A DNA stretch of 64,000 nt from an uncultured Pseudomonadales bacterium (GTDB taxonomy: Bacteria > Patescibacteriota > Microgenomatia > UBA1400 > PJMF01), in the NCBI GenBank assembly GCA_964574595.1, contig CAZNOF010000001.1:142721-206720 (forward strand). The letters are read 5' to 3'. Within the stretch, counting starts at the first letter, position 1; each line of letters starts with the position of its first letter. The notes beneath the pieces were generated by a model that worked only from the letters and a program-made list of their open reading frames with translations, had not been told where the DNA came from and made no database searches. Both the position numbers and the translations under genes were made by a program. Shown here piece after piece: positions 18,139 to 62,176 of the stretch.

Positions 18139-18154
18139 GTAGAGAACATGAAGC

Positions 18155-24331: not shown

Positions 24332-24422
24332 ATCTCGAGTGCAATATCTTTTGGATTGTAGTCCTCTTCCGTAAAAATCTCCAGTGCGCGGAATCTTTCT
24401 TGAATATAGTATAATTTCGAGT

Positions 24423-24632
24423 ATGGCCACTAAGAAAACAGATCAGAACGCTTTTGGAGTGCTTCTGAAAGAAGCGAGAGTAAAACTCGAGCTCACCCAG
24501 ACTCAAGTCGCCGAAAAAGCAGACATGACTAGTACTTACTATGCAATGATCGAACGAGGAGAAGTAAATCCTTCTCTTGAAAAGCTCAAGAGCCTGGCTA
24601 AAGTGCTTAAGATCAAATTGACAATCTCTTAA
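24423..24632 (+). CDS. XRE-family (Cro/CI-type) HTH transcriptional regulator
   Basis: LLKEARVKLELTQTQVAEKADMTSTYYAMIERGEVNPSLEKLKSLAKVL. It is divergent from the NTase-WYL gene. Start taken at the ATG at 24423. Confidence 0.75.
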   Translation: MATKKTDQNAFGVLLKEARVKLELTQTQVAEKADMTSTYYAMIERGEVNPSLEKLKSLAKVLKIKLTIS

Positions 24633-30280: not shown

Positions 30281-30294
30281 AAAGCATACCAGCC

Positions 30295-44876: not shown

Positions 44877-45638
44877 GTGAAAACGTATCGTACTGTGACT
44901 CTTAAAGCAGGTGCAGTAACATGGGGCATTCAAGCTCATCGTAACCCCTACCTGAGTACCCAACCTGATATTGCCTATGTTATCTTCGGCCAAATTGGTC
45001 TAGCTAATTCCTTGGCAGTTGTCCCGGTTAAGGTAACCGAGCGTCAGCAAGAGACTCTCATCTCTAATGGAAGCGTGCTTGTTGAGTACGCAGCTATTTC
45101 GGCCACACCTGAAGGTTTGCCGATCTTAATCTCGGCCTCTGGTGAAAGTGGTGACGGGCTGATTACCCTGTTTGAGACGCCGATCGGTACCAAAGGCAAT
45201 GACCTGACTGGTGATTGGAATCCTCAAACCTTTCCTACTGAGGAGCAGTTGGCACGAGCAACAGTGACTGTCATACAACCATTTTTGCCATTTCCGGGCC
45301 AAGAGATTGCCAAAGGTCAGTTCGGCCAGATCGGTGACACCGGTTTGTTCATGGCCTCGCACGTGTTGGCCCTCATGCCATCTGCTGTCTGGTTCAGCGA
45401 TGTAGTACGAAATGACGATGTTGAAAAATCGATCAGAAACTTCTACTACTGGGATCAGGTTTCGCTGAAGTCGATGACTTGGGAAGAGCGGGTGCGGCGA
45501 GGTTTTATTTCGCCGAATCAAATGCGAGTCGTACTCAATCAGAAGGTAACGATTCCGGCAGAGCTTTTTTGGCAACTTGTGGAAGCTTGTCCGAACTCGG
45601 CGCTGGTTACCGCCGCAAAGAAGGCTCTTGAAAGTTAA
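44877..45638 (+). CDS. Hypothetical protein (GTG start)
   Basis: 253-aa ORF with no recognisable motifs. Confidence 0.4.
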   Translation: MKTYRTVTLKAGAVTWGIQAHRNPYLSTQPDIAYVIFGQIGLANSLAVVPVKVTERQQETLISNGSVLVEYAAISATPEGLPILISASGESGDGLITLFETPIGTKGNDLTGDWNPQTFPTEEQLARATVTVIQPFLPFPGQEIAKGQFGQIGDTGLFMASHVLALMPSAVWFSDVVRNDDVEKSIRNFYYWDQVSLKSMTWEERVRRGFISPNQMRVVLNQKVTIPAELFWQLVEACPNSALVTAAKKALES

Positions 45639-45688: not shown

Positions 45689-47071
45689 TTATTTTTTATT
45701 TCGCAGAAATGCTGGGATATCAAACTCGTCTTCAAACTCGTTGGCACCGCCAACTTGAGAAACTGGCAATGAGTTGTCATTTGTATCAGCTGTCTCATCC
45801 TGTGTTTGTTGTAACATTGGATTGATAGGTGGTGGCGAGACTTGTTGAGTTGATTGTTGAGCTGGTTGAGCAGAACGATTGAAACCCAGCAAATCACCAA
45901 ATGAGTGCTGTTTGACTACTGGTTGCTGCTGACTCATTAAGACGTCAGATTTAAGGATTGGCTGAGTAAATGAGGTTGGAGCTCTGTCAATTTTTGGTTC
46001 TTCTCGAGTTTCCGGTTGAACTGGTGCTGGAGCAGCCATTCGAGAAAGCCGGGTGTTTGATTCTCTACTGAATGAACCGAACATCGTCTTCTGAGACGAA
46101 GCGTAGCCGAGTTGTCGTTCATCAAAGCCGGTAGCAATGACACTGATTTTAATGGTTGAGCCAAGCTGTTCGTCAATTGTGGCACCGAAGATGATGTTAG
46201 CATCTGGAGCAGCGGCACTAGCGATGATGGTTGAAGCATCAGAAACTTCACTCATGGCCATATCTGGGCCACCAATGATGTTGTACAAAATACCTTTCGC
46301 GCCATCAATTGAAACTTCTAAGAGTGGAGATGAAATAGCCATCCTGGCGGCTGCTGCAGCGCGGTTTTCACCACTAGCCTGCCCAATACCCATCAAAGCA
46401 GAACCTGAGTCTGACATAATTGTTTTGACGTCAGCAAAGTCCACGTTAATAAGTCCAGGAACAGTGATTAAATCGGAAATACCCTGCACACCTTGACCTA
46501 AGACATTGTCCGCTAAGCGGAAAGCATCAAGGAGGGTCATTTTTTTATCAATTACATCCATTAAACGTTGGTTTGGAATGACAATGAGCGTATCAACATT
46601 TTCTTTGAGGTTTTCAATTCCCTCTTCAGCAGATTGCATTCGGCGAATACCTTCAAAGGCAAATGGTTTCGTAACGACGGCAACGGTTAAGGCGCCGGAT
46701 TCTTTGGCAATCTCAGCAATAATGGCTGAAGCCCCTGTTCCAGTACCACCACCCATACCGGCGGTGATAAATACCATATCAGAATCGTATAAAAGGTCTT
46801 TTAGCTTCTCGCGACTTTCCTCGGCTGCAGCTCGGCCCACCTCTGGATCTGCGCCAGAACCTAACCCTTTAGTAAAGTTACTACCGATTTGAACTTTTGT
46901 TTCAGCTTTTGAGGAAAGAAGGGCTTGAGCATCAGTATTTACCGTGATGAACTCAACGCCTTGAATCTGATTTGAAGAGATCATGGAGTTGACGGCATTA
47001 CCGCCGCCACCACCTACACCAATGACTTTGATTTTAGCGAAAGTTGTATTTGTCGGTTTAACCAAACCCAT
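45689..47071 (-). CDS. ftsZ: Cell division GTPase FtsZ
   Basis: [11 protein letters not shown] and GGGTGTG tubulin signatures, with a long disordered tail ending in [13 protein letters not shown]. Confidence 0.95.
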
Positions 47072-47168
47072 GCGACTCCTTTACGATGTGGTGGTAGTGT
47101 ATCATTTTTCTTTGAGCTGTGAGGGGGAAAATACGAAACAAGTTTCGGTTTCTCGCCTCGTTAAAAAA

Positions 47169-48479
47169 CTATGGAATGATTGACTTAATTAACTGCACAA
47201 TTTTGTTGGAAATTTGATCAAGTTTTACATTCTTCATCATGTCGCTGATCCGAACAATCTTTTGTGGAGGTTGTGAAATGTTGCGGCGTGATGCGTAAAC
47301 AAGCAGCCCAATACTGGCGGCAAATGAAGGCTTCTGGATATCATCAATCAAGCCCTTGAGCTCGGTTGGTTTGCCTACTCTGGCTGGCAAGTTCAGGGTT
47401 CTTTTGGCAATCTCGACAATACCTACTGTTTCCGCTCCACCACCAGCTAAGACAAGTCCGGCTGGAACGAGTGGAAGTAAGTTGTGTTTTTGGAGTTCCT
47501 TGGCAATGAGAGCAAACATTTCCTTCATTCGTGGCATCATAATACCCTCAACGATTGTTCGTTTGGAAAGATCGTCTTGATTCTCGCTCAAGCCGAGCTC
47601 TTCAAGGTTGAGCTGGTCTTCTTCTTTTTGTCGTTTTTTGAAATCTTCTTTTGATTCACCGACGTGTGGTTTCATGGTGAAAAATTGATCATGAGTCAAG
47701 GCAAGTTTAATTTTTTCTGCTGCATCCAAGCTTAATCGGCAACCTAAAGCAATGTCCTGAGTGATGTGTCTGGCGCCAATTGGCAATACTCCAGAATACG
47801 TTAAAGCTCCTTCAACATACGCGCAGACAGAGGTTGATCCAGCGCCAATATCGACAAGTACCACACCCAACTCTTTTTCTGTTTCAGTCAAAACAACTTC
47901 AGCAGAGGCGAGACCTGCAAAGACGAAGCCATCTAACTCGAGACCTAAGTCTTGAACGAGTTTGGCTAAGTTTCTGAGGGACGTTGATTGGGCGGTGATA
48001 ATATGTGCTTCTGCTTCCAGTCGAACACCGGTCATTCCAACAGGATCCTTAATGCCAGCTTGTGAATCCACGGCAAAATCTCGAGGCACAACGTGGACAA
48101 TTTCTCGAGCTGATGGTAACGAGACGGCCCGTGCTGCTTCAAGCACTCGGGAAACATCTTCTTGAGTAATTTCTTGAGTTGGAGCTGAAACTGCTACGAC
48201 ACCCTTAGAATTTTGAGAGGCAATATGTGTACCAGAGATAGAAACAGAAACTGAGTGAACTTCAACTCCAGCCATTCTTTCTGCAGCATCAACACTTTCA
48301 GTCATGGAACCAAGCACATCTTCCAGATCTACGATCTGACTCTTTCGCATGCCACGAGTAGGAACTGCAGAGACACCTAACACTTGAATTTCTCGAGTGT
48401 CTGGCTGAGTGGTGGCAATTAACGTCACGCACTTGTCTGTGCCCACGTCAATGACGGCTATATTTTGTCCTCGCTGCAT
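47169..48479 (-). CDS. ftsA: Cell division protein FtsA
   Basis: Actin-like ATPase with IAVIDVGTDK and DIGAGST motifs. Confidence 0.9.
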   Translation of the reverse strand: MQRGQNIAVIDVGTDKCVTLIATTQPDTREIQVLGVSAVPTRGMRKSQIVDLEDVLGSMTESVDAAERMAGVEVHSVSVSISGTHIASQNSKGVVAVSAPTQEITQEDVSRVLEAARAVSLPSAREIVHVVPRDFAVDSQAGIKDPVGMTGVRLEAEAHIITAQSTSLRNLAKLVQDLGLELDGFVFAGLASAEVVLTETEKELGVVLVDIGAGSTSVCAYVEGALTYSGVLPIGARHITQDIALGCRLSLDAAEKIKLALTHDQFFTMKPHVGESKEDFKKRQKEEDQLNLEELGLSENQDDLSKRTIVEGIMMPRMKEMFALIAKELQKHNLLPLVPAGLVLAGGGAETVGIVEIAKRTLNLPARVGKPTELKGLIDDIQKPSFAASIGLLVYASRRNISQPPQKIVRISDMMKNVKLDQISNKIVQLIKSIIP

Positions 48480-48530
48480 ATCTCTTAGAATAACAAAGAT
48501 TCTCCTGATTGTGTGGAGCGGTTTTCAACT

Positions 48531-49259
48531 TCAAGTTTTTAAAACAGGATATTTGAATCGTAAATCAATTGTTTTAATGGGTTGTTTCACCATCTTCACG
48601 TTTATATTCTCTACGATATACGCGAGTTTATCAACTTGTGCTGCCACTCCTTGAACGCTTAATTGTGCAACTTTTTGGTCAGGTAATTCAAGTGCGATTT
48701 CATCATTGTTTATCAAACTGATTTTCTGAACTTGGAGATGTTTGGTCTCAATTTGACTGATCATGCTAGAAAGTGCTTGATGAATATCTGGATCAAGGTT
48801 CGATCGAAGATTTAAGCTTTGATACATTTCATCTGGTATCTGAATAATTGGCAGTGTGGACTGGTTTGTCTGATTGATGACAGTGCCTGTTTCATCAACC
48901 AAGTAAAGGTTCTCTTGAGTAGCAGCTTTGACAGCATAAAGCTCTGATGCTGGTAAAAAGTTCACTACAATCGTATCTGGCAACTGTTGTTTGAACTGAT
49001 ATCGATGAAGAGATGGTTGATATCGGCTAATTTTCTGAAGCTGAGCATCAATATCTACTTGAAACAGCGATTTGCCTAAGTCCTTATTGAGTTCTGCTTG
49101 TAAGTAATCTGGGCAGTTTTCTACGCCATCGATCGTACAGGTGATTTTTTTAATCCCAAAAGTATGATTCAGCTGAATAAATATGAGGGAGAAAACCGTC
49201 AGAAAACACAAGATTCCAGTCACCAGGAGTTGTTTACTTCTCATGTCCAACTTTTTCAA
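48531..49259 (-). CDS. ftsQ: FtsQ/DivIB-like cell division protein
   Basis: Bitopic with POTRA-like architecture, located between murG and ftsA. Confidence 0.65.
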   Translation of the reverse strand: MKKLDMRSKQLLVTGILCFLTVFSLIFIQLNHTFGIKKITCTIDGVENCPDYLQAELNKDLGKSLFQVDIDAQLQKISRYQPSLHRYQFKQQLPDTIVVNFLPASELYAVKAATQENLYLVDETGTVINQTNQSTLPIIQIPDEMYQSLNLRSNLDPDIHQALSSMISQIETKHLQVQKISLINNDEIALELPDQKVAQLSVQGVAAQVDKLAYIVENINVKMVKQPIKTIDLRFKYPVLKT

Positions 49260-50358
49260 TTACTTGATACAAAAGTTCGTCTGCATTACTGATTTGCGCT
49301 GATTTGATACTTTGTAATTTTGCCTTAAGTGCTTCATGGTTTTTCTTTAGCTCATTAAGAGCGGTTAAAAGGTGAGGTTCATCAAGTTCTCTTTGAGCCA
49401 GATAAATTGCTCCTCCACGCTGGACCAATGACAGGGCATTTTTACTCTGTTCATCATTTCGGGCATGAGCCAGTGGAATAAAAATGGTAGGAACCTGCGC
49501 AAAAATAACTTCTTGAACGGTGTTCGCTCCGGCTCTGGAAATCATTCCCCAGACGTGCTGATATACCCAGCCCAGTTCCTCTTCGGTAATCCACTCACGT
49601 ACCACATATTGAGTTGCCAGTTCTTTGACTGATTTAGCGGCTGCCAGTTCCAGTTCTTGTTTGTAATTGTTCGTGGTGGTGGAGTTGCCACATTGGTGCA
49701 GCACGTCCCACTCCTTCAATAACTCGGGTAAGATGAGTTGAATAGTGTGATTAATCGATTGTGAGCCTTGGCTACCTCCGGCGATATACAACAGTGGTCG
49801 TTGAGAAGGCGGCATTGCCCAGTCCGGTTTTGCTTTCTTTTGCCAAAGACCTTGTCGAATTGGGTTACCGGTTAAGACAACTTTATTCTTTGGAAATGAT
49901 GAGGCGGTTTCTGGAAATGAAATGGCAATTTTGGTGGCAAAGTGAGCAATGAATCTATTTGCGGTACCCGGTGCGGCAGTTTGTTCATGAGTTACTACTG
50001 GAATTCCTCGTAGCCAGGCTGCCAGGGCAAATGGAACTGCCAGGTATCCTCCAAATGACAAAAACAAATCAGGCTGCTCCTTTTTAAGGATAGTTGATGC
50101 TCTCAGAAAAGAACCAATGAATTTAAAAAACTGAAGTGGCAATAGAAGTGGTTGAGTTAGGTCAACTTTCCCCGAGTCAAACTCCAGGAAAGGTATGCCT
50201 CGTTTCTCAACCTCTTCTTTTTCTACACTTCTCTGTTGCAATGTCGTTTGACTGAATTTTCTACCTACAAAAAGAATAGAATCTTTTTTTTGTGAAAGCA
50301 CGTAGTCAATCGCTGACAAAGCTGGAGTTAAATGTCCTCCCGTAATCAGAATTTTCAT
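49234..50358 (-). CDS. murG: UDP-GlcNAc:lipid I GlcNAc transferase MurG
   Basis: MKILITGGHLTPALS N-terminus and a GT28 C-terminal domain. Confidence 0.85.
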   Translation of the reverse strand: MKILITGGHLTPALSAIDYVLSQKKDSILFVGRKFSQTTLQQRSVEKEEVEKRGIPFLEFDSGKVDLTQPLLLPLQFFKFIGSFLRASTILKKEQPDLFLSFGGYLAVPFALAAWLRGIPVVTHEQTAAPGTANRFIAHFATKIAISFPETASSFPKNKVVLTGNPIRQGLWQKKAKPDWAMPPSQRPLLYIAGGSQGSQSINHTIQLILPELLKEWDVLHQCGNSTTTNNYKQELELAAAKSVKELATQYVVREWITEEELGWVYQHVWGMISRAGANTVQEVIFAQVPTIFIPLAHARNDEQSKNALSLVQRGGAIYLAQRELDEPHLLTALNELKKNHEALKAKLQSIKSAQISNADELLYQVIEKVGHEK

Positions 50359-51440
50359 GCCTCACCTTTTCGACCCAATTGAATCAATATACCTATCACA
50401 AATAATACCATCATCAATGAGGTCCCCCCATATGAGAAAAATGGTAATGGAATCCCAGTCAATGGCACTAGCGCCACAATTGCAGACAAGTTTAAGACAA
50501 TCTGCATACCAACCCAAATTAGCAGTCCCATTGAAAACAGATACTCATAGGTGCCAGGTTTTGTTTTTTTCGTGATTTGGTGAATCGTGCGAATGAAAAA
50601 TGCAAATAAGGCAATCAAGACAACCGACCCCAGAAAGCCAATTTCCTCAGCCACGATAGCAAATATTGAGTCGGTACTTGCTTCAGGAATATAAGAAAAC
50701 TTCTGTCTTGATTTGCCAATTCCTTCACCCATTAATCCTCCATTGCCCAGGGCAAGGGTGATTTGATGAATGTGGAAGCTGGCGCCTAAAGGATCGGCCT
50801 CAGGATTCAAGAATGTGGTCACTCTTTGTAGCCGATATGGCGAGAAATAAATGATCAGGATGAGTAATACTGCTCCTAACCCACCGATCATCGTGAATGT
50901 TTTGAGTGGTGCGCCTGCTAAAAAGTACATTCCGAATGCAATTGCCAGTACAATTAAAGCAGAGCCCATATCGGGTTGTTTGAGCAACAGAGCACTGGGT
51001 AGCAAAGTTAAGAACAAGAAAGGCCCCAACTTCTGATGCTCAGTCATCCATTTTGCAAAAAAAGAAACGATGGCAAACTTTAAGACTTCAACTGGCTGTA
51101 AACTGAAGCCAGGAAGATAGAGCCAGCGCCTTGCTCCATTTACCTCACGGCCGATTACTGGGAGAAAGGTGGCAATTAATAAGAGAATTGAGAGACCATA
51201 TAAAGCAGGTGAGATTTTTTTCCAAAACGGAATTGGAATGAGCGAGCCGGCAATAAGTCCAGCCATGCCAATGCCCAGCCACATTGCCTGTTGTCTTACA
51301 AAATAAAACGGATTGCCAAACGTTGAGTATGCTTCTGCAACAGATGCTTCAAAAACAAAAAGTAAGCCTAACGCACAGAGGATGAGCGTTAAGATGAAAA
51401 GTACTTTCTGTGGGGCAGCAACAGATTTCTTAATATTCAT
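50355..51440 (-). CDS. ftsW: SEDS-family FtsW
   Basis: Polytopic. Start taken at 51440 (MNIKKS), forming an ATGA overlap with the murD stop. Confidence 0.8.
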   Translation of the reverse strand: MNIKKSVAAPQKVLFILTLILCALGLLFVFEASVAEAYSTFGNPFYFVRQQAMWLGIGMAGLIAGSLIPIPFWKKISPALYGLSILLLIATFLPVIGREVNGARRWLYLPGFSLQPVEVLKFAIVSFFAKWMTEHQKLGPFLFLTLLPSALLLKQPDMGSALIVLAIAFGMYFLAGAPLKTFTMIGGLGAVLLILIIYFSPYRLQRVTTFLNPEADPLGASFHIHQITLALGNGGLMGEGIGKSRQKFSYIPEASTDSIFAIVAEEIGFLGSVVLIALFAFFIRTIHQITKKTKPGTYEYLFSMGLLIWVGMQIVLNLSAIVALVPLTGIPLPFFSYGGTSLMMVLFVIGILIQLGRKGEA

Positions 51441-52783
51441 GGCTGATCTAACTCTTGTATCCAATGTCGGAATTGAGCCGCTTTATCTTGATAATCATGG
51501 AACTGTCCAAAGCTGGGAGAAGCTGGTGAAAGAAGCACGACGTCGCCTCTCTTGGTTTTTTCAAATGAAATTCTGACAGCCTGCTCCATGGTATCGACCA
51601 AATGCATCTCTGGGAATTGGTCAGGAGAGTATGTAGCTTCGATGAGCTGCTTCATTTTCTCTCCAGATGGTTTGAAAAATATAACCACTGGAATTTTTTT
51701 CTTCACAACTTCCTCAACAATTAATGAGTACTCAATCCCCCGATCAAATCCACCGAGCATGACCACTTTGGCTTGAGGGTACGCTTGAATTGCTGCAATG
51801 GCCGCCTCTGGAATTGTGGCGAGCGTATCATCGATAAAGGTGACTCCACTTTTGGTTGTAATAGGCTCTAAACGATGGGACAAAGGTTGAAAGGTTTGAA
51901 TAGTTTGAACAACACTTGCATTGTCAATCGAAGTCACTTCAGCGAATTGAAGTGCAGCTGGTAAATCTTGAGTTAAGAAAACGTCACTCAGCGATGTCTG
52001 CACATTTTCTAAAAGGGCTATCTCATCCCGACCTGCGTAAGGTTGAAATGGTTTCTTTATACCTTTGCTCTGGGTGGCAAACTTTTTGATGAGTGGCTCA
52101 TTTTCGTTATAAATGCTGTAGTCACTTTCACCTTGAAATTTCAGAATATTTGCTTTAGCTAGCACGTACTCATCAATAGTTCCGTGATAATTTAAGTGTT
52201 CAGAAAAGATATTCAATAGAATTGCCCAGTGCGGACTAAAGGTGACCGCTTGGAGTTGATAACTGGACATCTCCATAGCCACAACTGTCTCATCGGTGAT
52301 TTGACTAACAATTTCAAATGGTGGGATGCCAATGTTTCCGGCCAACAGGGCAACCTTATTAGCTGCTAAAAGTAGTTGATAAATAAATGTGGTCGTCGTG
52401 CTCTTGCCCTTTGTTCCTGTAATGCCTACCGTTTGATTTCGATACACTCTCAAGAATTCGTTCAACTGTGATGTAATTATTCCGTCATGCTTTATAAACT
52501 CTTGTAATTGTGGCTCCGTCAAAGGGATGCTTGGTGTTTTAAAAATAACATCATATCTTTCAAGACCGAGAAGATACTCTGATTTACCAAGAATAAGATT
52601 GACGTTCTCCTGATCTACTTCACTTAATTGAAGTGTTTCAGCTTGATCCATAACATTTAATATTTTCCCTGGGAAAAGTTGCTTGAGCTGTTCTAAGGTA
52701 CTAATGCCTTCTTTTCCTAATCCTAAAACGAGAAGTTCTTTGTTTTGATAAAGATGTGCGAGGGATGTAGTCAGTTTATTCAT
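51437..52783 (-). CDS. murD: UDP-MurNAc-L-Ala:D-Glu ligase MurD
   Basis: LVLGLGKEG N-terminus, GITGTKGKSTTTTF P-loop, MEMSSYQL. Confidence 0.85.
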   Translation of the reverse strand: MNKLTTSLAHLYQNKELLVLGLGKEGISTLEQLKQLFPGKILNVMDQAETLQLSEVDQENVNLILGKSEYLLGLERYDVIFKTPSIPLTEPQLQEFIKHDGIITSQLNEFLRVYRNQTVGITGTKGKSTTTTFIYQLLLAANKVALLAGNIGIPPFEIVSQITDETVVAMEMSSYQLQAVTFSPHWAILLNIFSEHLNYHGTIDEYVLAKANILKFQGESDYSIYNENEPLIKKFATQSKGIKKPFQPYAGRDEIALLENVQTSLSDVFLTQDLPAALQFAEVTSIDNASVVQTIQTFQPLSHRLEPITTKSGVTFIDDTLATIPEAAIAAIQAYPQAKVVMLGGFDRGIEYSLIVEEVVKKKIPVVIFFKPSGEKMKQLIEATYSPDQFPEMHLVDTMEQAVRISFEKTKRGDVVLLSPASPSFGQFHDYQDKAAQFRHWIQELDQP

Positions 52784-54155
52784 AAATGCCTAAGGCAGCT
52801 TTTAAAATTGATTTGAATTCTGTGGGCAGATGAGAATCATTTTGGTAACCCTTCAAAAATTGTCGTGCGTCATCAGCAGTCTGTTTGACGTCTCCCACAA
52901 TTTCTTTGGCGGTTTTCCAGAGCAGACTCATCTGAGCATCCTCATTCCGCTCTAAGGCTAATGCCAAAGCGTAAATACTTTCTTGCCTGGTTCCAACACA
53001 TTCGAGTGATTTGACCTCAATTTGACCAGTCAGTTCTTGGAGGATTGGTTTCAGATTTGGTTTAGCAAATAAATCTTGACCCCAAATGGCTTGCACTTCA
53101 AATTGATCTAAAAATGCCGATAGAAGAATGAACACAAACATACACTTTGGACACTCGCCACACCACTTGCCAGATTTTTGTCCTCTGTTACAACTTAAGA
53201 AAATTGGAAAGTACTGTGGTACGCGACTAAATAGCTCAGCGATTTGAATTTCATGGAGTGGCCTCAACCAACTAAAGTACTGAACTTCGGCAATAAGGTA
53301 CTTCTGAAAGTAGGAATCAAATGCTTCTTCAAACTCAAAGGTTTTGGAGTATTGATGATTGATTGTTTGGCCTAAGAAAACGGTGTTTCCTTCATTGGCA
53401 CTCCACTCATTTGATAGAGCAATATATTTATAATCATACAGAATGGCAGCAGTTGCGGAAACAAATGCCAGTAAGGCAGAAAATGGTGTGTGACCATTTA
53501 AATACCCACTTCTGTTCAATTCAATGAGTTGTGGGTCAATAAATCGCTGCACGTTTCTGTTATCAGAAATACCACTCACGGTCAGGAGCTGACGAATTTG
53601 GTCATTACTGTTGAGGGTCAAGGAAGTTACTGGGAATGGTAATTCTTTTGCCAATTCAAGGCTTACAGCGGAGTCCTTGCCACCCCCAACTGGAATAAGT
53701 ACTTGTTGACTGAGTGAGATTGCTTGCCAATCATGTTTTACAGGTAAATGAGTCACCTCAATATCAAGAAAGTCCTTGTGCCAACCATCTATTTGGTTGA
53801 CGAAGAAGAATTCACTTAGTCCTTTTTCAAGTAACTGTTTCCAAAATACCATTTGCTCAGCATTGAGATATCCAGCTTCGATGGTAATGTGCGGACTGCA
53901 GGCGCTTTTCCAATATGACAGAAGTTCGACCATGCCTACTTGAAACGCTAACTCTTGCAAAAAACCAGCTTGAAAGGATTCGATTCGTTTAGCTGAGACC
54001 AAAGGGAAAAAAAGTGAAGGTTTAAAAGTAGGACCATTCTCTAACACAAACTCATACGAAAAAGTGACTCCATCTTCCTGAACAGTAACATCAACCCTTT
54101 GATAACTGAATCTAGGGTGCTTATCTCGTAACACTTGGAAATCAATATGTTGCAT
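52776..54155 (-). CDS. PP-loop (PAPS-reductase-like, GGGKDS) ATP pyrophosphatase-family protein with a C-terminal Cys cluster; function unknown
   Basis: PVGGGKDSAVS at about residue 155 and C-x9-WCGECPKC near residue 330. There is no glutaminase domain. It is inserted between mraY and murD. Confidence 0.5.
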   Translation of the reverse strand: MQHIDFQVLRDKHPRFSYQRVDVTVQEDGVTFSYEFVLENGPTFKPSLFFPLVSAKRIESFQAGFLQELAFQVGMVELLSYWKSACSPHITIEAGYLNAEQMVFWKQLLEKGLSEFFFVNQIDGWHKDFLDIEVTHLPVKHDWQAISLSQQVLIPVGGGKDSAVSLELAKELPFPVTSLTLNSNDQIRQLLTVSGISDNRNVQRFIDPQLIELNRSGYLNGHTPFSALLAFVSATAAILYDYKYIALSNEWSANEGNTVFLGQTINHQYSKTFEFEEAFDSYFQKYLIAEVQYFSWLRPLHEIQIAELFSRVPQYFPIFLSCNRGQKSGKWCGECPKCMFVFILLSAFLDQFEVQAIWGQDLFAKPNLKPILQELTGQIEVKSLECVGTRQESIYALALALERNEDAQMSLLWKTAKEIVGDVKQTADDARQFLKGYQNDSHLPTEFKSILKAALGIYE

Positions 54156-54170
54156 ATTTCTGTTTACACT

Positions 54171-55214
54171 CTACAGCATTGCCAACCAAACACCAAATAG
54201 AGTCAGCATAATTTGCACGAGCCAAGCTCTTTGAACGATTTTCGGCTCTTCCCAACCATGATACTGTAGCCATAAGTGTAGCGGAGAGACTGGAAAGACT
54301 TTTTTCTTGCGGAATCGCTTGGATAAGAGTTGGATGGTCGATGAAGAGATTTCTAAGACAAATAAAGAGCCGATAATTAAGACTGCAATAATTTTTCCCA
54401 ACAACAAGCCAACAACCGCCAATGTCGCCCCAAAAGCCAGTGCCCCAACGTCGCCCATAAAAATACGTGCTGGGAAAATATTAAAGTACATAAATGAGAT
54501 CAGCGCTCCAAGCCATAGTGCAATAAACATTGAGAGCGGCACATCTAAGATGGCTGAAGAGAGATACCATAATCCAAATAACGAAATCATCAGGATACCA
54601 GAGGCCAAGCCATCTAATCCGTCAGTAATATTGACGGCATTGGTAAAAGAGACAATCACAAACATGGCAAAAGGAATATAGAGGGCGCCCATTTCGATTG
54701 TTTTATTGAAGAACGGAATATAGACAAAAGAAATATGAAGCTGGAAGTACAACATGAACGCAACGATAGCGCTTAAAATAAGTTGGAGAATGAATTTATG
54801 CTTCATTCTCAAGCCAAAAAACTGTTTTTTCTCTATCTTAAAAAATTTCTTGACGTCATCGTACATTCCAAGCATACCAAAGGAAAGAAACGTGAAGAAC
54901 AAAATATTAATTTCTTTAGGAATATCGTAGACACCAGTGATATGAATTCCGAAAAACTTGACGATGGGAAAAATGATCGCAAATAAACTGGCGACGACCA
55001 TAATTACTAGTAAGCCACCCCCAACAGGCACACCGGCCTTACTGTTATGAAAGGTGTCAAAAATCGGAGTGCTTTGGCCAAATGCGTCAACAGTTTTTTG
55101 TTTGGCTCGCTGAAATTTTAATCGATAGAGGGTGTTAATAAACGGAACAATTAAAATGCTCGTAATCACAAACGAGAAAAGAAGCAATCCAAGAATAAAA
55201 AGGAGTGAATTCAT
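54171..55214 (-). CDS. mraY: Phospho-MurNAc-pentapeptide translocase MraY
   Basis: NAVNITDGLDGLA and KAGVPVGGG motifs. Confidence 0.9.
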   Translation of the reverse strand: MNSLLFILGLLLFSFVITSILIVPFINTLYRLKFQRAKQKTVDAFGQSTPIFDTFHNSKAGVPVGGGLLVIMVVASLFAIIFPIVKFFGIHITGVYDIPKEINILFFTFLSFGMLGMYDDVKKFFKIEKKQFFGLRMKHKFILQLILSAIVAFMLYFQLHISFVYIPFFNKTIEMGALYIPFAMFVIVSFTNAVNITDGLDGLASGILMISLFGLWYLSSAILDVPLSMFIALWLGALISFMYFNIFPARIFMGDVGALAFGATLAVVGLLLGKIIAVLIIGSLFVLEISSSTIQLLSKRFRKKKVFPVSPLHLWLQYHGWEEPKIVQRAWLVQIMLTLFGVWLAML

Positions 55215-55224
55215 ATGGCTCTAA

Positions 55225-56541
55225 TTAGTATCTTTCAATTCTAGCTCCCATTGAACAAAGACGCTCGTCCAGTTTTTCATATCCACGATTAATCTGTTCT
55301 TCAGGATCATGTAAGTTGGTTATTCCGTGAGCGATTAAACCAGCTACCATCAAGGTAGCACCATGGCGAAGGTCTTTGACGGTGAACTCACCGGCTTTTA
55401 AGGTGGCAGGTCCAGTGATTCTGGCTGCGTGAAATTGATTTGGTTTGGCATCATCTAGGTTGAAGTTATACACTTGGTCTGGATTACTGACTTCAGGATT
55501 AAATAGCTCGATATCAGCTCCCATTTGTTTCAGCGAATCGATATAGCCAAAACGACTTTCATAAACCGTCTCGTGCAGCGTACTAACTCCTTTTGCTTGA
55601 GTCATCATTGTCACCCAAAGAGGCTGCCAGTCGGTCTTAAAGCCTGGATGTACTTCCGTGGTAACATCGATCGCTTTTAATTTTTGTTTGTAGTAGAAAC
55701 GAATTCCGTAATGTCCAACTTCGTAGCCCGCACCTGCTTGTTCCAGCTTCTCCAAAAAGGCTTTTAGATCATGAGCATTTGCATCTTCAACGATCACGTC
55801 ACCTTTGGTAGCTAAAGCAGCACAGGCAAAAGAAACGGCTTGATTTTGATCAGGCATAATTTTATGAACTGAGCCATTTAGCTTGGTAACACCATCAATT
55901 TCAATTACTGAACCAGGATATCGACGAATTCTAGCTCCCATTGAGTTTAAGAACTGAATCAAGTCATCAATTTCTGTTTCCTCGGCGGCATTTTCCAGTA
56001 CAGTCTTCCCTTTTGCCTTGACTGCGGCCATGATCAGAGTTTCGGTTCCGGTATGAGACTTTTTCTTGAAACGGTACAAATTGCCTTTCAGTTCTCCTTT
56101 GACCTCAATTCGGTCACCGTTCGTTGAAACGTGTGCTCCCAAAGCTTCAAGCCCATCAAAATGTCGATCGAGTGGTCTGTTACCAATCTTATCCCCGCCT
56201 GGAAAAGGCACAGAAGCCTTGCCAAATTTCGCTAGTAAAGCTGGGATGAATAGAGTCGCTGCTCTGGAAACTTCACCGTTCTCAGAAGAGATTTCCCAGG
56301 AGCTAAGTTCTTGAGGATCAATTTTGTACGCACGATCGCCCACTAATTCAGCTTTGCCGCCGAGTGAGTTAATGACTCTGGCTACGAGTTCAACGTCACC
56401 AATATGACTAAAATTCAGAAGTCTGGAAGGCGTGTCTGCTAAAAGTGAGGCAATCATCAGTTTGTAGGAAGCGTTTTTTGCTCCACCTATTCTGACACTG
56501 CCGTATAAAGGAAAACCGCCGGTTATTTTAAAGTTAGACAT
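55225..56541 (-). CDS. murA: UDP-GlcNAc enolpyruvyl transferase MurA (active-site Asp variant)
   Basis: GGAKNA and PGGDKIGNRPLDRH motifs. The catalytic Cys115 position is Asp. Confidence 0.85.
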   Translation of the reverse strand: MSNFKITGGFPLYGSVRIGGAKNASYKLMIASLLADTPSRLLNFSHIGDVELVARVINSLGGKAELVGDRAYKIDPQELSSWEISSENGEVSRAATLFIPALLAKFGKASVPFPGGDKIGNRPLDRHFDGLEALGAHVSTNGDRIEVKGELKGNLYRFKKKSHTGTETLIMAAVKAKGKTVLENAAEETEIDDLIQFLNSMGARIRRYPGSVIEIDGVTKLNGSVHKIMPDQNQAVSFACAALATKGDVIVEDANAHDLKAFLEKLEQAGAGYEVGHYGIRFYYKQKLKAIDVTTEVHPGFKTDWQPLWVTMMTQAKGVSTLHETVYESRFGYIDSLKQMGADIELFNPEVSNPDQVYNFNLDDAKPNQFHAARITGPATLKAGEFTVKDLRHGATLMVAGLIAHGITNLHDPEEQINRGYEKLDERLCSMGARIERY

Positions 56542-56543
56542 AA

Positions 56544-57503
56544 TTACTCTAGAAAGAAAACTTCCTCATGGAGATCAACTCCATAAAGTTCTTTCACTTT
56601 CTGTTTGACTATACTTGCTAACTGTTTTACTTCATCACTCGTGCCATTACCAGTATTGACAAAAAAAGCCGCATGTTTCTCACTTACCTCAATTCCGCCA
56701 ACTCGAGTTTTCTTGAGTCCTGCTCGGTCAATGAGGAAGGCAGATGGAAACTCAGTTTTTTCAGCAAATTGAGGAAATTCTTGTCTTAACTGAGGAGTAT
56801 TTGGTACATTTTGGAAGTAGCAGCCTGAGCTGGGCTCGCCAAGTGGCTGAGTAGTTGCTCGTCGAATAGTCGCTTCCTTGACCAATTCAAGGGATTTTTC
56901 TTTATAGCCCATCGGCAGTAAAAACTCGATTTGCAGGATGATTTCATGCGTCTGTTGGAATCTGGAAAAGTCATATCTGAATTCACATTCTTCTTGTGTC
57001 AGCCACTTTACTTCACCATTCAGATCGACTACCTCAACTCGTTTGACATACTCGCCAATCAGATGCGCGTCGTAGTGGGCATTATTGTAGATAGCACCGC
57101 CAATTTTTCCTGGTACACCCAAGTAATATTCGAGACCAGCTAATCCGTCGTCTATAGTCTGGCGAACCAAGAGCGCTGTTTTATAACCCGATCCAACTCT
57201 AATTAAGGTTTTACTTTCCTGACGTTCAAGAATTTGATACGCATCGTACGTTAAAGAAATGGTTACTCCCTTGAGTCCTGCAGACGAAATGACTACGTTG
57301 CTGGCTCCAGCTAGGATCCGGAACGAGATTTTTTCTTGGGAACAAAATTTGACGACCTCAATGATTTTCTCTCGAGTGTCGGCGACAATAAATACTTCGG
57401 CTGGGCCACCAATTTTAAAATAGCTCATGGGAGCCAAAGGCACATCAAACTGGGGATGTAGTTGTGAAAGTCTATCCTGAACTAACTGTTGTAGGGTAGT
57501 CAT
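56544..57503 (-). CDS. murB: UDP-N-acetylenolpyruvoylglucosamine reductase MurB
   Basis: FKIGGPAEVF FAD-binding N-terminus. Confidence 0.85.
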   Translation of the reverse strand: MTTLQQLVQDRLSQLHPQFDVPLAPMSYFKIGGPAEVFIVADTREKIIEVVKFCSQEKISFRILAGASNVVISSAGLKGVTISLTYDAYQILERQESKTLIRVGSGYKTALLVRQTIDDGLAGLEYYLGVPGKIGGAIYNNAHYDAHLIGEYVKRVEVVDLNGEVKWLTQEECEFRYDFSRFQQTHEIILQIEFLLPMGYKEKSLELVKEATIRRATTQPLGEPSSGCYFQNVPNTPQLRQEFPQFAEKTEFPSAFLIDRAGLKKTRVGGIEVSEKHAAFFVNTGNGTSDEVKQLASIVKQKVKELYGVDLHEEVFFLE

Positions 57504-57539
57504 TGATCCATTATACCCATTTTTGTCACATTTTGCGCA

Positions 57540-57974
57540 TTATTTCACATTTTGGAGATTATTATTCAAAATAGTCGGCTTCATCCCCATTATTTCATCA
57601 TACCCATTCACTCGTTTATCTGGAGAATGAAGTAAAAACAAGGTTTTTTTCAGATACAGAGCGACTGCCATTTCCATCAGGACATTTGGGCCAATATACC
57701 CTGCCAAATCATGTTTGGGTTCATTCACGACCAGAATTGCATCTGCTTTTCGAATATTGGGAAAGTGACTGAGAATGGCCTGGTGTTTTTGTTCAATATT
57801 GCCGTCATCAAATCGATCAGAGTAATGGTCAAAGTTGAAGTCTCGATTCTGTTCCATTTCGAGTGCTAACTCAGGAACAATTACTTGATAGCCTGCTTTT
57901 TCTAGCGCATGCATTACTTTAATCACTGATTCATACGCGGAGCAGCTGGCACAGAGTGTAATGGTCTTGATCAT
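57540..57974 (-). CDS. Small Rossmann-like protein, nucleoside 2-deoxyribosyltransferase-like fold (tentative)
   Basis: 144 aa. GYIGPNVLMEMAVALYLKKTLFLL resembles the NDT-family catalytic-Glu region. It overlaps murC by ATGA. Confidence 0.3.
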   Translation of the reverse strand: MIKTITLCASCSAYESVIKVMHALEKAGYQVIVPELALEMEQNRDFNFDHYSDRFDDGNIEQKHQAILSHFPNIRKADAILVVNEPKHDLAGYIGPNVLMEMAVALYLKKTLFLLHSPDKRVNGYDEIMGMKPTILNNNLQNVK

Positions 57975-59437
57975 CGTATCAACTCATGAATTTGATAAAT
58001 ATCACCAGCTCCAACACTCACGCAAACATCACCTTTTTTTAATTGCGATTGTAAAAAGTTTGCCAGTTCTGGGACTGTTTTCAGATTTTTCGCGATGATG
58101 TCAGGGAATGAGGTTTGTATCTGTTCGCAGAGCAGGTCACTCGAAATACTGCTATCAAATTGCTCTCTGGCTGAAGAGAAAATATCAATCATATAGACTT
58201 CATCTGCTTCAGCAAATGCGGCGACAAAATCCTTAAAAAGCGCCTTGGTTCTAGTAAAAGTGTGTGATTGAAAGGCAATTACTATCTTTTGATCTGGATA
58301 CCACTCACGAAATGCATGAATAACTTTGGAAATTTCATCTGGATGGTGAGCGTAATCATCGTAATAAATGACCCCATTTTTCTCACCAATAAACTCGGCT
58401 CTTCTTAAGGTTGAGCGAAAGTCAGCCAGATACTGAGCTGCATCATTCATGGGTACGCCCGCCTCTTGTACCGCCAAAAGGGCTGCCATCGCGTTCATGA
58501 CGTTGTACTCACCGGGAATTCTTAACTGGAGGAGGATCTTCTCATCAGCTACCTTGTTGTAAAGCATAGATTCGGTTACCCCGGGTTGGGTTTGATAGGA
58601 CAGTAACTGTAGATCAGCTTTAATACTTGTTCCAAATGTGAGTAGTTGTCTGTTATGTGTTTGAGAGTTCTGTGCCTCGATGATCACTGTTTGAGCTAGC
58701 TCGTGAAGGTCAGGATTATCAACATTCACGATTAAACTGCCGCCATCTTTAATAGAGTTGAAGAAAGTACCATACACTGCTTTCGTATGCTCAAAATCTT
58801 TATAAACATCTGGGTGGTCAAATTCTAAATTAGTACAGACCGTAATGTATGGTTGTAAGAATGAAAAGCGAGGCGTGATCTCTTCTCCTCGGCTGGGTGC
58901 AGAAGGATCTGTCACATACTCATCAGCTTCCGCTACGAAGTACTCACTTTTGCGGCTCCATTGGCCAGTTTTCTCGAGTCCGGGAATATTTCCCACGCCA
59001 ACGGCGAAAGACACTTCTCTGTCTGGATCTGCCTGATGAACCCGATTCAGAATCCAGGAAATCATGGCAGAAGTTGTGGATTTTCCCCCCACACCACAAA
59101 CGGCAATTCCCTTTTTGGCATTAAATAATTCTGCTAATGCCACGGCATGAGGAATGGTTTCAATCTCCCGCTTCTGTGCCGCCAGAACTTGAGGATTCTG
59201 TTGCGCATGATGAGCGGCTGTAAAAACCACGCAGTCGCAGTCACGAGGAATCTCCGCTGAGAATGAATTGTCGATAGAAATGCCTAACTTTTCTAAAATG
59301 TGCTGAGTGACAAAATGTTCCGGCACATCTGAGCCACGGACTTTCTTCCCGGCGTCAACCAAGCATTGAGCCAGGGCAGTCATTGCTACGCCTTTGATGC
59401 CGACTAAATAGAATGACTGATATGACAAAAGGTTCAT
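57971..59437 (-). CDS. murC: UDP-MurNAc:L-Ala ligase MurC
   Basis: VGIKGVAMTALAQCL, CGVGGKSTTSAM. Confidence 0.85.
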   Translation of the reverse strand: MNLLSYQSFYLVGIKGVAMTALAQCLVDAGKKVRGSDVPEHFVTQHILEKLGISIDNSFSAEIPRDCDCVVFTAAHHAQQNPQVLAAQKREIETIPHAVALAELFNAKKGIAVCGVGGKSTTSAMISWILNRVHQADPDREVSFAVGVGNIPGLEKTGQWSRKSEYFVAEADEYVTDPSAPSRGEEITPRFSFLQPYITVCTNLEFDHPDVYKDFEHTKAVYGTFFNSIKDGGSLIVNVDNPDLHELAQTVIIEAQNSQTHNRQLLTFGTSIKADLQLLSYQTQPGVTESMLYNKVADEKILLQLRIPGEYNVMNAMAALLAVQEAGVPMNDAAQYLADFRSTLRRAEFIGEKNGVIYYDDYAHHPDEISKVIHAFREWYPDQKIVIAFQSHTFTRTKALFKDFVAAFAEADEVYMIDIFSSAREQFDSSISSDLLCEQIQTSFPDIIAKNLKTVPELANFLQSQLKKGDVCVSVGAGDIYQIHELIR

Positions 59438-60414
59438 ATTTCGCTAAGTCCAATTAACAGATTGCCAATCTTTTGGGCATCGTGCCTCAATAATGATCGA
59501 TGAGCTGTGTCATAGGCAACTGCTGCTGCTAATTTTTCACTCAAAATATCTGCTCGAACTACTCTTGGATCACCGTCCAAATCATCAACAACCGGAAACT
59601 CTTTTTCAGCGGCATAGAGATCTAAAATTGCTTGAGGGATTTCCGTTGAGTTCACGACAATTACATCGACTTGTCTGCCAATGGCCTCTTCAATGCCTTT
59701 GACGTGGTCTAGCGCGGTCATATCAGGAGTTTGGGTAAAGCGAGTCATCAAGTTCAGAATGTAGACAACTTTGGCACGGCTGTGCTGTAAAGTTTCTTTG
59801 ACTTTATCTGGGACCAGTGTGGCCATCAAACTTGCGTAGTAGTCACCTGGACCAATGATAATCATGTCTGCTTCTTTAAGTGCTTCCTCAGCAGAAGGAT
59901 TAATTGTGGCATGAGGAACTAACTGAATTTGGGCAATTTTACGGAGTTTTTCTTGTTTCTCATCAAGTGTGTGTTCACCAACTTCTACACTGCCATCTGC
60001 ATACTGGATTTGGAGGTTTACATTATCTTTAGTGACCGGAATGACTCTTCCTTCAAGACGAAAAACTTTTTCGGCAATTTCTAACGATTCAGTGGTGTCA
60101 CCAGTCATGTCCTGAAGAGCGGTCAGAATGAGGTTCCCTAAGTTATGTCCTTGCAGCCCAGTCCCTTTATCAAAACGATAGAGCAAAATCTTGCGAATCC
60201 ACTCTTCTCCTTCACTTTCTGCCAGAGCAGCCAATGCCTGTCTCAAGTCACCGACTGGTTGAAAACCAAATTCATCACGAATTTTGCCGGTTGAACCACC
60301 TGAGTCAGAAACGGCAATAATACTAGAGATTTCAAAGTCAGTGCAGCGTTTCAAACCACTCACCACTGGAAAAGTGCCGGTACCACCACCGAGCACGACT
60401 ATTTTTTTCGTCAT
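59434..60414 (-). CDS. yvcK: YvcK/CofD-like (UPF0052) protein
   Basis: IVVLGGGTGTF N-terminus, about 326 aa. Confidence 0.75.
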   Translation of the reverse strand: MTKKIVVLGGGTGTFPVVSGLKRCTDFEISSIIAVSDSGGSTGKIRDEFGFQPVGDLRQALAALAESEGEEWIRKILLYRFDKGTGLQGHNLGNLILTALQDMTGDTTESLEIAEKVFRLEGRVIPVTKDNVNLQIQYADGSVEVGEHTLDEKQEKLRKIAQIQLVPHATINPSAEEALKEADMIIIGPGDYYASLMATLVPDKVKETLQHSRAKVVYILNLMTRFTQTPDMTALDHVKGIEEAIGRQVDVIVVNSTEIPQAILDLYAAEKEFPVVDDLDGDPRVVRADILSEKLAAAVAYDTAHRSLLRHDAQKIGNLLIGLSEI

Positions 60415-61667
60415 ATTTTGTCCTTCGTTTTCTTATTCATAATTGCCCGAACTGCCGCTTGATCACTCCAAGGGTATTCGGTGGTGCCAAATGCCATGCT
60501 CTTTTCATGGCCTTTCCCAAAAATGGCAATAATATTGTGAGGCTGAGCATAGTGAGACATGGCGTAAGCAATAGCCTCACCCCGATCAGCAATCGTCATT
60601 ACTTTACCATGATACTCGCCTAAATTTGACTTCATTTGTCGGATAATCGCCCAAACTTCTTCTGTCCGAGGGTCTTCTGCCGTAAAAATAGCGATATCTG
60701 CCAGCTCTGCGCCAAGCCGTCCCATCAGGGGTCGTTTCTTTTTATCACGCAGTCCCGCGCAGCCAAAAATGGCGATCAATTTACCCCTGCGCCTATTCCC
60801 TTTCATTTTGTCTTGAAGAGCTAGCAGAGCTGACTCCAAAGCCTTGGGAGTGTGTGCGAAATCCACAATGATTTCCGCACCTTGATAGTTGCCTACTGTT
60901 TCCATCCGTCCAGGGACACCCTTAAATTTTTTTAGGCCAGCAATGTAATCGTTGTCTGAGACCGCTAGTTCTTGAGCCATTGTATAGACGAGACGAGCGT
61001 TCATTTGGTTATATGGTTCTTCAAACCGATCGGCAATAACCTTTTTCACCATTTTGGGAACTGGATCATCAGCCGAGTATGTAACCACTCTAGCTCGACC
61101 ATTTCTGAGCTCTTTCTTGAGTTTCCCAAAAGACATCTCATCATCAGCATTGATAATCGCTACCTCTGCTCTCTTTGCCAGAGCGGCCTTTGCCTCAACA
61201 TAGAGGTCATAAGTGAGATGATAATCCAAGTGCTCTAAGGAAATATTGGTGATTCCGACAATTTTCGGATGAACACCCCATAAACGGTATTGATAGATAC
61301 CGTGGGAGGTAGCTTCCATAACCAAGTATTCAAAGCCCTCGTCCACCATTTTTCGCATGAATGCTTGAATTTGTTTTGGGTCTGGGGTGGTGACGTGAAA
61401 GCCGGTATCAATTTCTTCATCGCCAATGTACGCGGCGACCGTACTTAATAAGGCAACCTTCTTGCCAGCAGCTTTCAGGACAGAATACAGCAGCGTGCTC
61501 GATGTGGTTTTTCCGTCTGTACCAGTGATGCAAATAACTTGGAGTTGTTTATTCGGGAAGTGATACTTTATTTGAGCAGGAAGGCCAGAAAGAAGGCCAG
61601 TTTTTAAGAAGTGATACGGCTTTTTGATTTGGTAAGCGAGTAAATCAAACATGCATGCTCCAGTCAA
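60411..61667 (-). CDS. murE: Mur-ligase-family enzyme, MurE-like but lacking the usual N-terminal domain
   Basis: P-loop ICITGTDGKTTSS at residue ~47, MEATSHG, and C-terminal TAEDPRTE (DNPR-like) and FGKGHE motifs. Only 418 aa. Confidence 0.5.
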   Translation of the reverse strand: MTGACMFDLLAYQIKKPYHFLKTGLLSGLPAQIKYHFPNKQLQVICITGTDGKTTSSTLLYSVLKAAGKKVALLSTVAAYIGDEEIDTGFHVTTPDPKQIQAFMRKMVDEGFEYLVMEATSHGIYQYRLWGVHPKIVGITNISLEHLDYHLTYDLYVEAKAALAKRAEVAIINADDEMSFGKLKKELRNGRARVVTYSADDPVPKMVKKVIADRFEEPYNQMNARLVYTMAQELAVSDNDYIAGLKKFKGVPGRMETVGNYQGAEIIVDFAHTPKALESALLALQDKMKGNRRRGKLIAIFGCAGLRDKKKRPLMGRLGAELADIAIFTAEDPRTEEVWAIIRQMKSNLGEYHGKVMTIADRGEAIAYAMSHYAQPHNIIAIFGKGHEKSMAFGTTEYPWSDQAAVRAIMNKKTKDKI

Positions 61668-61672
61668 GTTGA

Positions 61673-62152
61673 CTATTTTGATTGTAAGTACTCATCAGCT
61701 TGGGTCAAGAGTTGTTTGCCAGCCTCAAAAGTGATCAACTGTTTACCCTCTGCCAGCGTCACCCATTTGTAGTCTTCAATTTCTAGCTGTTGAACTTGGA
61801 TGTCAGTTGAATTTGTTTCAGCCAGCCAAAAAGTCACGACTTTATCAACCTTTTTTCCCCAGACTTTGAATGAGTACTTTTCTAGAAATGTCACATTTTT
61901 CTCTGGTTTCAAATGACTTAATCCAACTTCTTCTTCAACTTCCCTAATAGCTGCTTCTAAAGGTTTCTCATTACCTTCAGCGTGACCTTTGGGGAAGTCC
62001 CAGTGACCCTGTTGATGTTTAATTGTTAAAAAGTGAGGTTTGCTCTCTTTCCACTGATAAATAATCATGCCATACGAGGCATCAATGCCTGATCGGTACA
62101 AATCTAGGTTTCGACGAAAATGGTGAAGTGACGGTAAATGCAATCTTTTCAC
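61673..62152 (-). CDS. Nudix hydrolase
   Basis: Nudix box GHAEGNEKPLEAAIREVEEEVGL. Confidence 0.85.
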   Translation of the reverse strand: MKRLHLPSLHHFRRNLDLYRSGIDASYGMIIYQWKESKPHFLTIKHQQGHWDFPKGHAEGNEKPLEAAIREVEEEVGLSHLKPEKNVTFLEKYSFKVWGKKVDKVVTFWLAETNSTDIQVQQLEIEDYKWVTLAEGKQLITFEAGKQLLTQADEYLQSK

Positions 62153-62176
62153 ACAGTTATCGTATCATGAGCTGAT

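Follow-up and report, generated by a model that had tools for sequence, protein, structure and literature searches.

The stretch of DNA analysed here, called the window, comprises 64,000 nucleotides of contig CAZNOF010000001.1 (positions 142,721 to 206,720) and contains a division and cell wall (dcw) gene cluster. Within this cluster, a gene for a 459-amino acid (aa) protein lies between mraY and murD. A first reading of the DNA, referred to below as the original prediction, had singled out this protein for its PP-loop (GGGKDS) and C-x9 cysteine cluster, and both are present, at aa 157–162 and 322–338. The gene is read here as murL, for an ortholog of the epimerase MurL, and its neighbour as the gene of a MurD2-type ligase. 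The main features are listed below.

62177–63991, minus strand: ftsI (NCBIfam/Pfam)
54171–55214, minus strand: mraY, immediately upstream of murL and in the same operon (TIGR00445, E = 7.6e-54)
52776–54155, minus strand: murL, UDP-N-acetylmuramoyl-L-alanyl-L-glutamate epimerase ortholog, 459 aa (NCBIfam NF041275)
53670–53687, minus strand: PP-loop GGGKDS of MurL, aa 157–162, an ATP pyrophosphatase-type nucleotide-binding motif
53142–53192, minus strand: Cys4 cluster C322-x9-C332-x2-C335-x2-C338 of MurL, a QueC-type metal site, probably for Zn
52998–53000, minus strand: fifth cysteine of MurL, C386, in the motif K-S-L/F-E-C-V-G-T, a candidate catalytic residue
51437–52783, minus strand: murD, MurD2 type (TIGR01087, 298.9 bits)

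On the evidence of NCBIfam and Pfam, the cluster runs entirely on the minus strand in the order ftsI - Nudix - murE - yvcK - murC - orf144 - murB - murA - mraY - murL - murD - ftsW - murG - ftsQ - ftsA - ftsZ. This is the order given by the original prediction, except that the small Nudix gene between ftsI and murE had been missed. The murL open reading frame (ORF) is intact, with an ATG start and 459 codons. It begins 15 nt after the mraY stop codon, and its own TAA stop overlaps the ATG of murD (ATGAATAA). The four cysteines of the cluster (read as ...FLSCNRGQKSGKWCGECPKC...) are joined by two additional cysteines in the protein, at positions 86 and 386.

Identity of the 459-residue protein

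Xanthomonas oryzae has neither a glutamate racemase nor a D-amino-acid aminotransferase (Ogasawara & Dairi, PMC8788868; PMC5808125). MurL was characterised in earlier work of 2017, summarised in the same two reviews: it converts the terminal L-Glu of a UDP-linked dipeptide to D-Glu, while ATP is converted to AMP. Epimerase activity is established for the enzymes of X. oryzae, Micromonospora, and Salinispora, and the authors have proposed that the alpha-carboxylate is adenylated (PMC8788868). MurL is said to have no ‘known conserved domains’, and its distribution is given as some Xanthomonadales, a few Alphaproteobacteria, and rare actinobacteria (PMC8788868).

The window protein matches NCBIfam model NF041275 (‘MurL_Xanthmoales’, UDP-N-acetyl-alpha-D-muramoyl-L-alanyl-L-glutamate epimerase) over nearly its whole length, with query residues 11–453 aligned to positions 5–445 of the 447 in the profile (E = 1.6e-76, 257.6 bits). 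The same model is matched by all 70 members of alignment A2 (best E = 3.2e-89). More than 6,500 proteins match window MurL at E <= 1e-5 in a search of 5.8 billion proteins, and one NCBI protein (P0001, encoded on a contig of 229,805 bp) is 100% identical to it; a chance ORF is ruled out by these matches. The Pfam pair PF26298 and PF26299, known here by accession only, is precomputed for P0001 and for all 120 hits listed. Several homologs at 45–62% identity have been named ‘UDP-N-acetyl-alpha-D-muramoyl-L-alanyl-L-glutamate epimerase’ by NCBI or JGI.

A Pfam scan gives QueC (PF06508; E = 0.004, local to aa 304–339) and DUF6395, both sub-threshold, and the QueC match falls short of both the gathering threshold and full-domain coverage. 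By themselves, these Pfam hits would have pointed to a protein of unknown function. The PDB sequence search yields just a PP-loop match to TtuA (E ~0.7), and TtuA matches in general (E = 0.045 to 0.74) are confined to the PP-loop. In the N-terminal region, Pfam detects no significant domain, and hence neither a glutaminase nor a tRNA-modifying N-terminus, in agreement with the original prediction.

Window MurL resembles the characterised enzymes in its size (~450 aa), its end-to-end match to NF041275, and its position next to a MurD2-type ligase. It differs in being distant in sequence, with a score well under the Xanthomonadales equivalog cut-off, and in having a patescibacterial host, a group absent from the MurL hosts listed in reviews (PMC8788868, PMC5808125). 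It also differs in location, as window murL is located within the dcw operon, with mraY on one side and murD, which it overlaps, on the other. The MurL family has already been characterised (PMC8788868, PMC5808125), and the window gene is a further member of it rather than the uncharacterised enzyme that had been envisaged.

The neighbouring ligase

Residues D182, K348, A414, and L416 of Escherichia coli MurD correspond to E197, R358, P433, and F435 of X. oryzae MurD2 (PMC8788868, in which the E. coli numbering equals the translation index minus one). Of these, E197 and R358 control stereospecificity: the double change E197D/R358K turns X. oryzae MurD2 to D-Glu, while K319T makes E. coli MurD accept L-Glu (PMC8788868).

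Aligned to E. coli MurD, window MurD has E195, R348, P423, and F425 at the four MurD2 positions and L321 at the K319 position. With Glu and Arg at the stereospecificity positions and Pro and Phe at the other two, window MurD carries the complete MurD2 pattern and is thereby predicted to use L-Glu. The original prediction did not spot that this neighbour is of the L-Glu-specific type and is the other half of the system. Window MurD shares all four residues, including the two that govern stereospecificity, with X. oryzae MurD2 (XOO_1320), and likewise adjoins murL; this likeness is drawn through the E. coli numbering and the published residue mapping.

The pattern is general among MurDs encoded next to murL. 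In a set of 68 such proteins (that of the window and those of 67 further loci, described below), the D182 position is E in 64, whereas the K348 position is R, and the K319 position L, I, or M, in every one. The A414 position varies (P/A/S/T), and the L416 position is mostly F or Y. Similarly, the combination E/[LI]/R at the D182, K319, and K348 positions occurs in 118 of the 118 closest database homologs of window MurD, several of which are named ‘UDP-N-acetylmuramoyl-L-alanine---L-glutamate ligase’ by JGI. Canonical MurDs have the following residues at these positions.

E. coli MurD: D at the D182 position, K at the K319 position, K at the K348 position
P. aeruginosa MurD: D at the D182 position, K at the K319 position, K at the K348 position
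S. agalactiae MurD: T at the D182 position, K at the K319 position, R at the K348 position
T. maritima MurD: D at the D182 position, K at the K319 position, alignment ambiguous at the K348 position

Lys at the K319 position is thus kept in all four canonical MurD species in the PDB. In contrast, the equivalent residue is never Lys in 186 MurD2-type sequences, which read DD[TS]LATIPEA where E. coli MurD reads NDSKATN. Judged by alignment, this natural non-Lys pattern matches the published K319T and K330T mutants, which gain L-Glu acceptance (PMC8788868). A residue other than Lys at the K319 position could therefore act as a simple annotation rule for MurD2.

Predicted structure and proposed mechanism

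The AlphaFold2 model of window MurL, based on a 70-sequence alignment, has a mean pLDDT of 95.7 and a pTM of 0.93. It comprises an N-terminal domain (residues ~1–145), a central domain (~148–345), and a helical C-terminal domain (~350–459). In structure comparison, its neighbours are PP-loop ATP pyrophosphatases, with QueC as the best match; the enzymes matched by fold are QueC, NAD synthetase, asparagine-synthetase-like proteins, LarE, and TtuA. The SGGxDS-type loop, at the first beta-strand/helix turn of a Rossmann-like fold, places the protein in the PP-loop ATP pyrophosphatase superfamily. The same comparison found no close relative of the N- or C-terminal domain and no known structure that covers the whole protein, so that no MurL structure has been solved, and literature searches returned no paper on MurL structure.

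A profile alignment to E. coli QueC places GGGKDS on SGGQDS, and C322, C332, C335, and C338 on the QueC motif C-x8-C-x2-C-x2-C. This alignment (hhalign, single QueC sequence; E = 0.007, 5% probability) serves only to set the motif register. In a set of 81 sequences drawn from many phyla, the four cluster cysteines, C386, Y81, K83, H222, H267, Q268, K271, E276, and R298 are invariant, and the PP-loop is almost so, in the form [GSA]GGKDS. C386 is also invariant in 70 of 70 aligned sequences, and we infer that it could have a catalytic role. Because of the fold match, the motif register, and this conservation, the central domain is read as an adenylating module like that of QueC, probably with a Zn site, and the Cys4 cluster is, by analogy with QueC, most likely structural.

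The resemblance to QueC has clear limits. Identity to QueC (7-cyano-7-deazaguanine synthase, PDB 3bl5) and to the QueC-like Cap9 (PDB 9nto) is ~15%, MurL has extra N- and C-terminal domains, and the Pfam QueC score is local and under the gathering threshold. Substrate and outcome also differ, as MurL epimerises, whereas QueC forms an amide or nitrile.

In the mechanism proposed here, MurD2 would ligate L-Glu, not D-Glu, onto UDP-MurNAc-L-Ala. The QueC-like PP-loop domain of MurL would bind ATP and adenylate the free alpha-carboxylate of the terminal L-Glu, and the resulting acyl-adenylate would render the C-alpha proton acidic. An enzyme base would take this proton, the carbon would be reprotonated from the opposite face, and hydrolysis of the D-acyl-adenylate would yield the product and AMP, making the reaction irreversible. 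MurE, encoded in the same operon, would carry the pathway on after MurL. Candidate catalytic residues are H222, H267, K271, E250/E255, and C386. Fold and conservation point to alpha-carboxylate adenylation, to the probable base, and to the probable metal. The QueC-like core fits the published ATP-to-AMP stoichiometry and supports the sequence of adenylation, deprotonation, reprotonation, and hydrolysis. As modelled, this core lends structural support to the adenylation mechanism, in contrast to the statement that MurL lacks known conserved domains.

The idea that a PP-loop enzyme of adenylating type acts on a peptidoglycan precursor was already part of the original prediction and is borne out by the homology to MurL and the link to the Mur genes. 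The precursor is indeed a peptidoglycan intermediate, but a soluble one, the UDP-linked dipeptide that lies upstream of lipid I/II. The suggested chemistry, amidation or thiolation, does not hold for MurL orthologs, which epimerise L-Glu to D-Glu and convert ATP to AMP.

Such a modification would nevertheless suit the fold: relatives with a PP-loop usually pass the carboxylate or carbonyl, once adenylated, on to an N or S nucleophile. In other bacteria, MurT/GatD amidates the very carboxylate that MurL is proposed to adenylate. The window enzyme might thus amidate the Glu alpha-carboxylate to isoglutamine, or thiolate it, in place of epimerisation. This is very unlikely, given the full-length homology to proven epimerases (PMC8788868), the lack of a glutaminase domain in window MurL and of a glutaminase partner in the operon, and the L-Glu-specific signature of the partner ligase, which calls for an epimerase to supply MurE. 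MurT/GatD (lipid II isoglutaminyl synthase) shares with MurL the ATP-dependent activation of the stem-peptide glutamate alpha-carboxylate. It differs in that MurT has a Mur-ligase fold, forms an acyl-phosphate, acts on lipid II, works with a glutaminase partner, and gives an amide product. Epimerisation and amidation might also be combined: the patescibacterial MurL adenylate may react with a nucleophile such as ammonia, in which case a single enzyme would carry out both on the stem-peptide Glu. An amidating MurL of this kind, to which we give very little credence, would replace MurT/GatD as well as MurI.

Host and supply of D-Glu

The closest labelled FtsZ homologs (70–89% identity) come from a BH10PAT2 soil-metagenome record, Woesebacteria, the Microgenomates group, and the Patescibacteria group, and the labelled homologs of window MurL and MurD are also patescibacterial. 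On the basis of these homologs and of a type IV secretion system (T4SS)-like gene set, the window is patescibacterial.

The MurI motifs DSGxGG, xCNT[AS], and GCTH[YF] occur in none of the six frames of the 64-kb window, and its Pfam-scanned ORFs include no racemase or aminotransferase. MurD2 with MurL would give the same net result as MurI with a canonical MurD, namely D-Glu at position 2 of the stem peptide. MurI, however, needs no cofactor and racemises free Glu reversibly with two Cys residues, whereas MurL has the UDP-MurNAc-dipeptide as its substrate, uses ATP, and is unidirectional; the two enzymes have unrelated folds.

It is conceivable that MurL is redundant or accessory here, with D-Glu made by a MurI encoded elsewhere and used by the adjacent MurD. 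The genes for D-Glu supply were sought in the 64-kb window, and one Saccharibacterium is reported to have glutamate racemase activity (as cited in PMC11974145). This possibility seems less probable still than amidation or thiolation, because the sole murD of the dcw cluster has the complete MurD2 signature, without a Lys equivalent to K319, and murL and murD are translationally coupled. Moreover, redundant pathways are seldom kept in reduced patescibacterial genomes.

Linkage, gene fusion, and spread of the family

At least 596 relatives came out of a scan of GTDB species genomes, and the best 80 loci, none from Xanthomonadales, were retained. Of the 68 loci whose downstream DNA reaches at least 1.8 kb, 64 have murD after murL in the same orientation, directly adjacent in 54; the exceptions are L026, L028, L034, and L044. 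Upstream, mraY directly precedes murL in 27 of 78 loci, all of Patescibacteria-type context (mraY-murL-murD-ftsW-murG), and one locus (L005) reproduces the whole window order from ftsI to ftsZ.

In two Parcubacteria-type genomes, 3–3.6 kb of unrelated DNA separates murL from murD (L024, 9535–12435; L007, 9511–12143). As read from translations, without a family-library scan, the L024 insert holds an apparent transposase and the L007 insert an apparent HMG-CoA reductase-like gene. A conserved third component between murL and murD was considered and rejected, as these inserts hold unrelated genes.

An exhaustive HMMER search places the MurL family in 2,470 clusters at 50% identity with E <= 1e-3, and in 1,168 with E <= 1e-30. 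Around 34 of the top 150 cluster representatives have a fusion-like length (790–1040 aa), and two of these were checked by BLASTP. One (P0242, 899 aa) is a MurL–MurD fusion whose C-terminal half is 46% identical to window MurD and has the MurD2 motifs; the other (P0259) joins MurL and MurD in the opposite order. The fusions, in either order, together with the conserved adjacency and the translational coupling, show that MurL and MurD2 work as a pair.

The least probable reading, that the protein is a QueC-, TtuA-, or TilS-like nucleoside or tRNA modifier, or the generic Zn or Fe-S hitchhiker that had been put forward as a fallback, merely sitting in the dcw operon, draws on the weak local hits to QueC and TtuA and on QueC being the best structural neighbour, and it can practically be set aside: these hits are all sub-threshold and limited to the PP-loop or Cys cluster, without assignment to a tRNA-modification family of variable context, ~145 N-terminal and 110 C-terminal residues of MurL have no counterpart in QueC, and hitchhiking cannot explain a murL–murD pairing that is kept across phyla, with the genes even fused.

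MurL-bearing genomes include Patescibacteria, others labelled Terriglobia, Binatia, and Bacteroidales that are far too large for that group, and metagenome-assembled genomes (MAGs) labelled Lachnospiraceae. Some MAG labels are doubtful, and the case for MurL outside Patescibacteria consequently rests on contigs that are too large for that group. These include L026 (labelled Terriglobia, 3.76 Mb), L051 (labelled Binatia, 5.74 Mb), and those of P0094 and P0096 (~4 Mb); a MurD2-type protein is also encoded on a 7.0-Mb contig, again too large for Patescibacteria. Two taxonomic labels look wrong, those of L064 (DASPLQ010000012.1, ‘Vitreimonas sp.’) and L005 (CAYUQY010000009.1, ‘uncultured Pseudomonadales’). 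The FtsZ of a ‘Vitreimonas sp.’ assembly, apparently on the contig of L064 (1.41 Mb), is 73% identical to window FtsZ, which places it among the patescibacterial hits, and L005 has the whole dcw gene order of the window. No paper on patescibacterial MurL turned up in literature searches.

Weighing the evidence

Homology, fold, motif conservation, the MurD2 signature, gene coupling, and gene fusions are the basis of the reading given here. Together, they make it highly likely that the window gene encodes MurL, that the overlapping murD encodes MurD2, and that the two provide a joint racemase-independent route to the D-Glu of the stem peptide. By analogy, the predicted reaction of window MurL and its ATP-to-AMP stoichiometry are carried over from published biochemistry on orthologs.

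Several points weigh against this conclusion. The NF041275 score of 257.6 bits is far under the equivalog cut-off of 700, and MurL orthology rests on context rather than on this curated threshold. As the model is, by its name, restricted to Xanthomonadales, the missed cut-off reflects phylogenetic distance and does not argue for another function. Measured epimerase activity comes from X. oryzae, Micromonospora, and Salinispora, and from no patescibacterial enzyme; the activities of window MurL and MurD2 are predicted. The comparison with characterised MurD2 was made through E. coli numbering and the published residue mapping. Genes for MurI and for a D-amino-acid aminotransferase are missing from the 64-kb window, the region searched, and the active racemase mentioned above is reported for at least one Saccharibacterium (Penalver et al. 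2024, as cited in PMC11974145). Lastly, adenylation, the base, and the metal are assignments that we infer.

Other genes of the cluster and the window

The Nudix hydrolase gene (61673–62152, minus strand) lies between ftsI and murE, directly upstream of the latter. The murE gene (60411–61667, minus strand) is short, at 418 codons, and MurE profiles match its product only from about position 97 onwards, which indicates that the usual N-terminal domain is missing; the MurE of locus L005 is of similar length. The yvcK gene (59434–60414) lies between murE and murC. No murF or ddl was found by NCBIfam and Pfam in the dcw cluster (45689–63991, minus strand). Between murC and murB, orf144 (57540–57974, minus strand, 144 aa) has no Pfam, NCBIfam, or PDB match. 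It appears to be an insertion specific to this lineage, because only ~140 nt separate murC from murB in the syntenic locus L005.

Outside the cluster, a second SEDS (FtsW/RodA-family) gene (40482–41549) adjoins the L21 and IleRS genes. On the opposite strand, ileS and ftsZ flank a putative 253-aa ORF (44877–45638, plus strand) without a family match. The T4SS-like gene set (17812–22921, plus strand) encodes a 432-aa T4SS pilin/TrbC-domain protein, PrgI-like and TraC-like proteins, a 597-aa TraG/VirB4-type ATPase, and an M23 peptidase, and resembles the T4SS described for Patescibacteria (PMC12102498). It is immediately followed by a gene (22928–24430, minus strand) for a 500-aa protein with an AbiEii nucleotidyltransferase toxin domain, and then by one for a small PLD-like protein (24941–25381). 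Two large neighbouring proteins of 734 and 777 aa (28076–32628, minus strand) have faint HEAT-repeat matches only, and their genes adjoin one for a protein-L-isoaspartate O-methyltransferase (27143–28066).

Implications

These results settle the annotation of two dcw genes: the unknown PP-loop protein is MurL, and murD is to be read as an L-glutamate ligase (MurD2). The evidence is that the MurD2/MurL route is far more widespread than reviews state, that its two proteins are often fused, and that it is part of the dcw operon of many Patescibacteria. Better supported than an amidating MurL is the view that MurD2/MurL, as an integral part of the dcw operon, is the default route to D-Glu over a very large share of bacterial diversity. 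In reviews, the pathway is confined to relatively few genera, and it has been proposed there as a narrow-spectrum antibiotic target. Given ~2,500 family clusters (50% identity) and a presence in no fewer than 596 species-level genomes, inhibitors of MurL and MurD2 would be less selective than has been assumed.

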